NCBI RefSeq assembly: GCF_003334315.1
Contig: NZ_QOWR01000028.1
Source: Escherichia coli
Lineage (GTDB): Bacteria > Pseudomonadota > Gammaproteobacteria > Enterobacterales > Enterobacteriaceae
Direction: 5' to 3' (one strand)
DNA: 57,407 bases
Below are positions 37,556-37,828 of this stretch, piece by piece. The translations under genes and the position numbers were made by a program. Below the pieces are notes generated by a model. The model was given only the letters and a program-made list of their open reading frames with translations. It did no database searches and was not told the origin of the DNA. Every line of letters starts with the position of its first letter. The first letter of the stretch is position 1.

Positions 37556-37828
37556 ATGAATATTTATACCTTTGATTTTGATGAGATTGAGAGTCAGGAG
37601 GATTTTTATCGTGACTTTAGCCAAACCTTTGGTCTGGCGAAAGATAAGGTACGCGATCTCGACTCACTATGGGATGTGTTAATGAACGATGTCCTGCCGC
37701 TACCACTTGAGATTGAATTTGTTCATCTGGGAGAGAAAACGCGTCGCCGTTTTGGCGCGTTAATATTGCTGTTTGATGAGGCAGAGGAAGAGCTGGAAGG
37801 GCATTTGCGTTTTAATGTTCGTCATTAG
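37556..37828 (+). CDS. yhcO: barstar-like ribonuclease inhibitor family protein (orphan)
   Basis: 90 aa acidic protein, N-terminus [27 protein letters not shown]. Confidence 0.85.

Follow-up and report, generated by a model that had tools for sequence, protein, structure and literature searches.

The Escherichia coli gene yhcO, which lies in a 57,407-nucleotide stretch of contig NZ_QOWR01000028.1 (the window), encodes a barstar-type protein and is very probably the vertically inherited barstar of an ancestral barnase–barstar operon linked to tldD and aaeB, from which the ribonuclease (RNase) gene was deleted. The motif with which barstar contacts barnase is intact in every RNase-linked barstar checked and lost or relaxed in every barstar checked that stands without an RNase gene (hereafter, orphans), and yhcO is under purifying selection, not decaying. 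We regard the locus as a natural experiment on the fate of one of the best-studied protein–protein interfaces after one partner disappears, and one whose built-in controls (RNase present or absent at one and the same locus, motif canonical or remodelled) make function directly testable. Databases already record the gene, the family it belongs to, its structures and the fact that its function is unknown, and this is not a new kind of system; we have seen no earlier description of the loss-of-partner history or of the motif decay. It belongs to the uncharacterized ‘y-ome’, yet has two crystal structures (PDB 2cx6 and, from Salmonella, 5f4c) and is among the most RpoS-dependent genes.

Profile, fold and the DxxxD motif all place YhcO in the barstar family, as the initial annotation, made from the sequence alone, had proposed. 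The Pfam model Barstar (PF01337) matches residues 1–81 (E = 2.4e-9), no NCBIfam model matches, and RefSeq labels the product ‘barstar family protein’ in the order aaeB, yhcO, yhcN, argR. YhcO matches the chain of 2cx6 (‘hypothetical protein yhcO’) with 100% identity and 5f4c with 77%. BLASTP against Bacillus barstar gave 27% identity (pairwise E = 5e-6) and phmmer against barstar in the PDB was marginal (E = 0.06–0.5), so that fold and profile evidence was needed for the assignment. An AlphaFold2 (AF2) model built from a 52-sequence alignment reached a predicted local distance difference test (pLDDT) score of 95 (69 for a single-sequence model), and Foldseek placed it at a template-modelling (TM) score of 0.99 to 2cx6 and of 0.78–0.82 to the barstar chains of barnase complexes (root-mean-square deviation (rmsd) ~2 Å); the structural comparison suggested in the initial annotation thus returned the barstar fold and not an unrelated one. 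Like the barstar of Bacillus amyloliquefaciens (PDB 1BRS/1A19; PF01337), which it resembles at TM ~0.8 and rmsd ~2 Å, YhcO has an alpha/beta fold of three parallel strands and four helices, is of nearly the same length (90 against 89 residues) and is acidic, again as annotated (isoelectric point 4.5; 21 Asp and Glu versus 10 Lys and Arg). Barstar D35, W38, D39, E76 and E80 correspond to YhcO D36, W39, D40, E75 and E79, although the two proteins share only 20–27% identity and YhcO lacks an adjacent barnase gene. The DxxxD on helix 2 (barstar D35/D39) that is the signature of the Imm-Barstar family (PMC3482391) is present in E. coli YhcO as D36 and D40.

A profile search of 1.84 billion representative proteins recovered 129 YhcO relatives, and in the nearest full-length ones outside Enterobacteriaceae the barstar gene lies directly 3′ of a PF00545 ‘Ribonuclease’ gene, at a distance of 4–5 nt. 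Contexts were read from individual contigs and one PLSDB record, which verified about ten RNase-linked lineages, and in every verified pair the RNase and barstar genes are adjacent, 0–5 nt apart. These chromosomal operons sit at the locus that yhcO occupies, after aaeB or tldD: the order is yhdP–CN_hydrolase–tldD–RNase–barstar in Xenorhabdus and in locus L006, tldD–RNase–barstar–darP–pmbA in Proteus mirabilis, aaeR–aaeXAB–RNase–barstar–darP–pmbA in Serratia liquefaciens, aaeR–aaeX–aaeA–aaeB–Aldedh (aldehyde dehydrogenase)–RNase–barstar–darP–pmbA in Yersinia pseudotuberculosis and RNase–barstar–darP in Hafnia and Edwardsiella. Their barstars are 44–57% identical to YhcO (Yersinia, Serratia, Hafnia and Xenorhabdus) and differ from it in following a barnase homologue with a signal peptide and in keeping the FG.NLDALWD..TG motif. 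The RNases themselves share 59–61% identity with barnase over ~100 residues, retain equivalents of barnase K27, R59, E73, R83, R87 and H102, and carry hydrophobic N-terminal leaders, features that mark them as genuine homologues of barnase, predicted to be secreted. The named homologues of the Xenorhabdus RNase belong to Xenorhabdus, Photorhabdus, Morganella, Yersinia, Serratia, Hafnia, Erwinia and Pantoea; Escherichia, Salmonella, Citrobacter and Enterobacter are not represented among the top 120. The Yersinia barstar is cited as ‘YPO3690’ in a Klebsiella aerogenes annotation.

Gene order at the Enterobacteriaceae loci matches that of these operons with the RNase gene missing. A genome-collection scan, followed up for the best 80 of 263 relatives (all of them Enterobacteriaceae species representatives, from 15 named genera), gave tldD–aaeR–aaeA–aaeB–(91 nt to ~7 kb)–yhcO–yhcN(one or two copies)–argR–mdh in 80/80 wherever the flanks were covered, with no RNase hit at E ≤ 1e-4 at any of the 80 loci. 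Most Enterobacteriaceae have an aldehyde-dehydrogenase gene that stops 25–50 nt before the yhcO start, and this aaeB–Aldedh–yhcO order is the Yersinia arrangement minus the RNase gene. In Escherichia the aldehyde-dehydrogenase gene is additionally gone and a 91-nt spacer is left, which we propose as the deletion site because relatives carry the aldehyde-dehydrogenase gene, the RNase gene or both there; tblastn found no RNase relic in this spacer or in orphan loci. Biostraticola has the order tldD–aaeR–aaeXAB–Aldedh–barstar–darP–pmbA, and tblastn found no RNase at the aaeB–Aldedh–barstar–darP locus of either Biostraticola or Acerihabitans. The stand-alone barstars of Biostraticola tofi and Acerihabitans thus resemble yhcO in locus and show similar motif decay, but downstream they have darP–pmbA as in Yersinia, not yhcN–argR.

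The barstar tree agrees with this history. In a neighbour-joining analysis (89 columns, 200 bootstraps), the orphan barstars were monophyletic in 178/200 bootstraps and fell within the RNase-linked barstars of Enterobacterales, with those of the Erwinia type on a branch of their own. YhcO is 31–39% identical to the Erwinia type and 23% identical to Bacillus barstar. Horizontal acquisition of yhcO was rejected, as its synteny is fixed and the tree follows the families. The proposed sequence of events would start from a chromosomal operon, 3′ of tldD/aaeRXAB, for a Sec-secreted barnase-type RNase and a cytoplasmic barstar; Yersiniaceae, Hafniaceae and Morganellaceae still have it, and in Enterobacteriaceae, Biostraticola and Acerihabitans the RNase gene is gone and only the barstar is left at the same position. 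The deletion would have taken place in the Enterobacteriaceae ancestor, and the loss in Biostraticola and Acerihabitans may have been either shared with Enterobacteriaceae or independent. Two points weigh against placing full trust in this reconstruction: the neighbour-joining tree has only 89 columns, and the RNase-linked context was verified in only about ten lineages, set against a genome scan of the best 80 of 263 relatives.

Interface residues follow the presence of the RNase gene. In classical barstar, residues 29–44 (a loop and helix 2) plug the barnase active site. This segment reads FGANLDALWDVVTG in the RNase-linked Enterobacterales barstars, close to YGENLDALWDCLTG in Bacillus, and the canonical contact motif within it (residues 30–43, F/Y30-G31-x-N33-L-D35-A-L-W38-D39-x-x-T42-G43) is almost invariant from Bacillus to RNase-linked Proteobacteria. 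Comparison of 79 unique orphans with a 119-sequence set (‘RNase-linked’), in which the motif positions are 86–99% conserved, revealed changes along most of the segment. At position 30, F in the RNase-linked set, no orphan has F (0/79; K, Q or S instead), and the G at position 31 is always V or I (G in 0/79). N33 is D in 53/79 and N in 26/79, A36 is S, T or A (A in 8/79), T42 is T in 39, M in 20, I in 10 and V in 10, and G43 is retained in 53/79; directly after position 43, where the RNase-linked set has no residue, orphans carry one inserted residue. D39 is D in 47 and E in 27 and becomes S, H, Q or K in the other 5; in Biostraticola/Acerihabitans-type sequences it is L or Q. By contrast with these variable positions, D35, W38, E76 and E80 are invariant in the orphans, as is the acidic helix-4 block. 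In YhcO numbering, D36 is invariant across the 79 and position 40 is acidic (D/E) in 74/79. E. coli YhcO itself does not retain the full barnase-contact segment: it has D, K, V, D, M, N and V in place of barstar Y29, Y30, G31, N33, T42, G43 and W44, together with the one-residue insertion after 43. Eight sequences of the 119-sequence set deviate from the motif, of which one is a truncated fragment and the rest are YhcO-type or Biostraticola/Acerihabitans-type; the three whose context was checked are all orphans. Motif state thus tracks the RNase gene in every case checked, with about ten lineages paired and canonical and more than 80 orphan and altered.

Selection on the orphan genes was estimated from pairwise ratios of nonsynonymous to synonymous substitution rates (dN/dS) among 82 orphan coding sequences (CDSs), using the 663 pairs with 0.1 < dS < 1.5. 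The median dN/dS was 0.128, with 0.20 in the N-terminal half and 0.09 in the C-terminal half, and dS was saturated between genera. A C-terminal block, RRR(F/Y)..., is essentially invariant in the 79 unique orphans, and the block RRFGA(L/I)(I/V)LLF(D/E)... is near-identical in YhcO and the RNase-linked Enterobacterales barstars. These values strongly disfavour the view that yhcO is a functionless relic awaiting loss: its partner has gone, its interface motif is relaxed and the searchable literature reports no yhcO phenotype, but we consider the idea very improbable given a dN/dS of 0.13 with dS saturated between genera, 25 C-terminal residues that are essentially invariant across 79 unique sequences, an open reading frame (ORF) intact in 5426/5426 E. 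coli genomes (from conservation of the region) and in 80/80 species, and strong, regulated expression.

What YhcO now does is a far more even matter than where it came from. Because the contact motif is conserved where an RNase gene is adjacent and lost or relaxed where there is none, selection for high-affinity barnase binding has probably lapsed. On the residue patterns described above, YhcO would no longer be kept as a tight plug for an enzyme of the barnase family and would be retained for another interaction, in which acidic helix 4 together with D36 and W39 would bind a different partner, basic and probably nucleic-acid-binding, when cells are in stationary phase or under stress, making YhcO an exapted ex-immunity protein. 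We give this functional part, a lapsed plug role and retention for a different interaction through the helix-4 face, D36 and W39, close to even odds, if anything shading below them; widow origin and exapted function taken together stand, as the best explanation of the whole, at an even chance. A narrower version is offered more tentatively, namely that the barstar may have been domesticated by recruitment into the RpoS regulon after RNase loss, its helix-4 face binding a basic partner in stationary phase; candidates for that partner would be one of the cell's own RNases, from a different family, that enters the cytoplasm during stress, and a nucleic-acid-binding protein of some other sort. If true, this would be a case, in the core genome, of an inhibitor that survived its enzyme and moved beyond it. 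Barnase in the E. coli cytoplasm is toxic when no Bacillus barstar is supplied, despite chromosomal yhcO (PMC8403359), and the comparative result is consistent with this chromosomal homologue failing to rescue barnase cloning.

We caution against overinterpretation of a lapsed plug role, since several observations weigh against it. E. coli YhcO keeps D36 and D40, the two hottest acidic positions, and residual or even good RNase binding is possible; variation at the interface could stem from diversifying selection and not from relaxed selection; and the helix-4 block is conserved in RNase-linked relatives too, and may simply belong to the surface that contacts the RNase in this clade. The toxicity of barnase in cloning strains could be due only to low exponential-phase expression of yhcO. 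The searchable literature yielded neither biochemical nor genetic data on YhcO.

The alternative that survives best, and the main idea of the initial annotation, is that YhcO is a working, fairly broad barnase-family inhibitor that gives stand-alone immunity against foreign toxins delivered to the cytoplasm by Rhs proteins and the type VI secretion system (Rhs/T6SS) or by contact-dependent inhibition (CDI). The barstar fold, the invariant D36, W39, E75 and E79 and the acidic residue at position 40 in 74/79 orphans are all compatible with it, purifying selection marks a useful gene, and RpoS control fits the dense, competitive conditions of stationary phase. Suitable toxins also exist: some Salmonella have barnase-type Rhs/T6SS effectors with barstar immunity genes (PMC10469887), and Imm-Barstar is a recognized polymorphic-toxin immunity family linked to barnase-like toxins and listed for Ntox21 CDI toxins as well (PMC3482391). 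We nonetheless consider this explanation unlikely, because the conserved contact residues are lost or relaxed in every orphan and D39 has become S, H, Q, K or L in several lineages. The Salmonella strains with Rhs-barnase effectors appear still to need a dedicated barstar despite universal yhcO (PMC10469887), and such effectors would be useless if a universal core gene neutralized them; barnase is likewise toxic in E. coli when Bacillus barstar is lacking (PMC8403359), although low exponential yhcO expression could explain this. In addition, barnase-type genes were not found on Enterobacteriaceae plasmids or on phages, and the RNases of neighbouring genera have Sec leaders, with no obvious route into the cytoplasm of another cell.

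The same comparison bears on the initial annotation, which had read yhcO as an orphan immunity-like gene. Like the orphan immunity genes of polymorphic toxins (CDI and Rhs/T6SS, including Imm-Barstar), yhcO encodes an immunity-type protein in a genome without its toxin; unlike them, it is neither variable nor mobile. Such genes lie in variable toxin/immunity islands that differ between strains, whereas yhcO is flanked by aaeB, yhcN, argR, mdh and tldD. The 2.5-kb yhcO region was found in 5426/5426 complete E. coli genomes at ≥95% DNA identity, and the gene is single-copy, core and in fixed synteny there and in 80/80 species; it is therefore not an orphan immunity cassette of the CDI, Rhs or colicin kind. 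For colicin D toxins, ImmD and Imm64 are listed, not Imm-Barstar (PMC3482391).

The annotation had also allowed for a partner RNase encoded elsewhere, and we consider a cognate barnase-type RNase at another site in the E. coli genome highly improbable. Membership of the barstar family is by itself the argument for it. The Yersinia RNase gene gave 0 matches in 5426 E. coli genomes by blastn with word size 11, a comparison at DNA level only, and Enterobacteriaceae plasmids and, separately, phages gave no hit; the top 120 homologues of the Xenorhabdus RNase, as given above, lack Escherichia, Salmonella, Citrobacter and Enterobacter proteins, and the genes of verified pairs are always adjacent. 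We know of no PF00545 protein in E. coli K-12. A possible parallel to yhcO is YrdF of Bacillus subtilis 168, a strain that lacks barnase: this barstar homologue, too, has no barnase gene next to it.

The statement in the initial annotation that no RNase or toxin lies near yhcO extends to the whole window. Searches by tblastn with barnase, binase, RNase Sa and two enterobacterial barnase homologues gave chance-level matches only across the 57 kb (best E = 0.08), and the annotated genes include no rhs, cdi or vgrG gene. All annotated genes are core housekeeping genes, none of them toxin-associated: the run is the rrn tail, yhdWXYZ, acrEF, fis, accBC, mreBCD, rng, yhdP, tldD, aaeR–XAB and yhcO, followed by yhcN, argR, mdh, degSQ, rplM–rpsI, sspAB, nan and yhcD–G. 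The two immediate neighbours, aaeB and yhcN, are as annotated (Table 1).

Expression data place yhcO in stationary phase and stress. It is among the 100 most RpoS-dependent stationary-phase genes, with an expression ratio of 214 (PMC2907692), is induced by a rapid acid shift (PMC2270276), and is bound and activated by LldR (PMC10272880). The searchable E. coli literature holds nothing on the function of YhcO or on RNase inhibition by it, its mentions being expression or mutation lists. The LldR-box-like sequences listed for yhcO in PMC10272880 (8/14 matches each) fall at 37627–37643 and 37692–37708 of the window; both are within the yhcO CDS on the opposite strand and not upstream. In the DNA before the gene, the strong terminator that follows aaeB insulates yhcO from the aaeXAB transcript, and co-transcription of yhcO with aaeXAB in E. 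coli was rejected on the strength of it. A sigma-70 promoter scan upstream of yhcO found nothing. The candidate CTATACT −10 element is conserved in E. albertii, and GGTGG or a near variant (GGTGA, GGGGC or GATAG) stands at the same spacing in most of 15 aligned Enterobacteriaceae yhcO upstream regions. The gene starts with ATG and is the longest possible ORF of its frame.

Table 1 Features of the yhcO locus, in window coordinates.
Feature	Position	Strand	Basis
tldD; synteny anchor directly before RNase–barstar in Xenorhabdus, Proteus and locus L006	31657..33102	+	ORF list, loci
aaeB; upstream synteny anchor, precedes RNase–barstar in Yersiniaceae	35497..37464	+	ORF list, annotation
aaeB–yhcO spacer, 91 nt; proposed deletion site	37465..37555	+	Gene order in relatives
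aaeB intrinsic terminator; 11-bp stem, 5-nt loop, U-run	37468..37496	+	Fold −16.9 kcal/mol, z −6.2
Candidate sigma-S type extended −10, gCTATACTta, ~48 nt before ATG	37502..37510	+	Inferred from reading of the sequence
Shine-Dalgarno-like GGTGG, 6 nt 5′ of yhcO ATG	37545..37549	+	Sequence
yhcO CDS, 90 aa plus stop; barstar-fold protein	37556..37828	+	ORF list, PDB 2cx6, Pfam PF01337, AF2 model, RefSeq
GC-rich yhcO–yhcN hairpin; good terminator on the minus strand (yhcN)	37840..37856	.	Terminator scan, fold −23.3 kcal/mol, z −3.9
Second hairpin, after the preceding one	37859–37878	+	
yhcN; convergent neighbour of yhcO	37884–38147	−	

The junctions around yhcO vary among Enterobacteriaceae. Between aaeB and the barstar gene, Yersinia, Biostraticola and most Enterobacteriaceae carry an aldehyde-dehydrogenase gene that is missing from Escherichia, and the stretch just 5′ of yhcO in Salmonella arizonae appears to be a deletion remnant because it can still be aligned to the 3′ end of this gene (compare L015 at ~7890–8000, L087 at 6337–7806 and 37465–37555 of the window). 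The aaeB–yhcO spacer ranges from 91 nt to ~7 kb (L048, L077, L081, L021, L022, L061 and L065), and further genes have therefore been inserted at the junction in some genera. On the 3′ side, many Enterobacteriaceae carry yhcN, the gene for a YdgH/BhsA-like stress protein, as a tandem pair of paralogues (L015, L016, L020 and others, at ~8330–8990), and Escherichia and several Citrobacter and Enterobacter have a single copy; L097 is without yhcN and has argR directly after yhcO.

Erwinia-type RNase–barstar pairs (L091, 8001–8748; L092, 3145–3874) lie in a different neighbourhood, with an AI-2E transporter gene and SrfB/SrfC-like virulence-factor genes. This neighbourhood, the separate barstar branch and the 31–39% identity to YhcO suggest a second, independently placed RNase–barstar pair within Enterobacterales. 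Some record labels call for care. The ‘Klebsiella pneumoniae’ RNase P0277 (L092, CABEIZ010000079.1) was not counted as an Enterobacteriaceae RNase, as it comes from a 5.3-kb contig with Erwinia-like context, and L046 (CACSKA010000008.1), titled ‘Chryseobacterium sp. 18061’, shows the full Enterobacteriaceae tldD–aae–yhcO–yhcN–argR–mdh synteny; both are probably mislabelled or contaminant sequences. The ‘plasmid’ matches to yhcO are chromosome-sized records or derive from chromosomes; several of those labelled E. coli, Klebsiella and Salmonella have the size of a chromosome. Similarly, the PLSDB ‘Proteus mirabilis plasmid’ records NZ_OL790811.1 (L099) and NZ_OL790812.1, of 4.08 Mb and with tldD, pmbA and the RNase–barstar pair, look like chromosomes filed as plasmids.

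Elsewhere in the window, positions 1–351 hold the tail of an rRNA operon, in which a cut 5S rRNA is joined by a tRNA (tRNA-Thr in the annotated record of E. coli) and by another 5S rRNA, this one complete. The yhdP–tldD intergenic region contains two naRNA4 (CssrE, REP-type) elements, at 31396–31465 and 31487–31556, that reach the Rfam gathering score.

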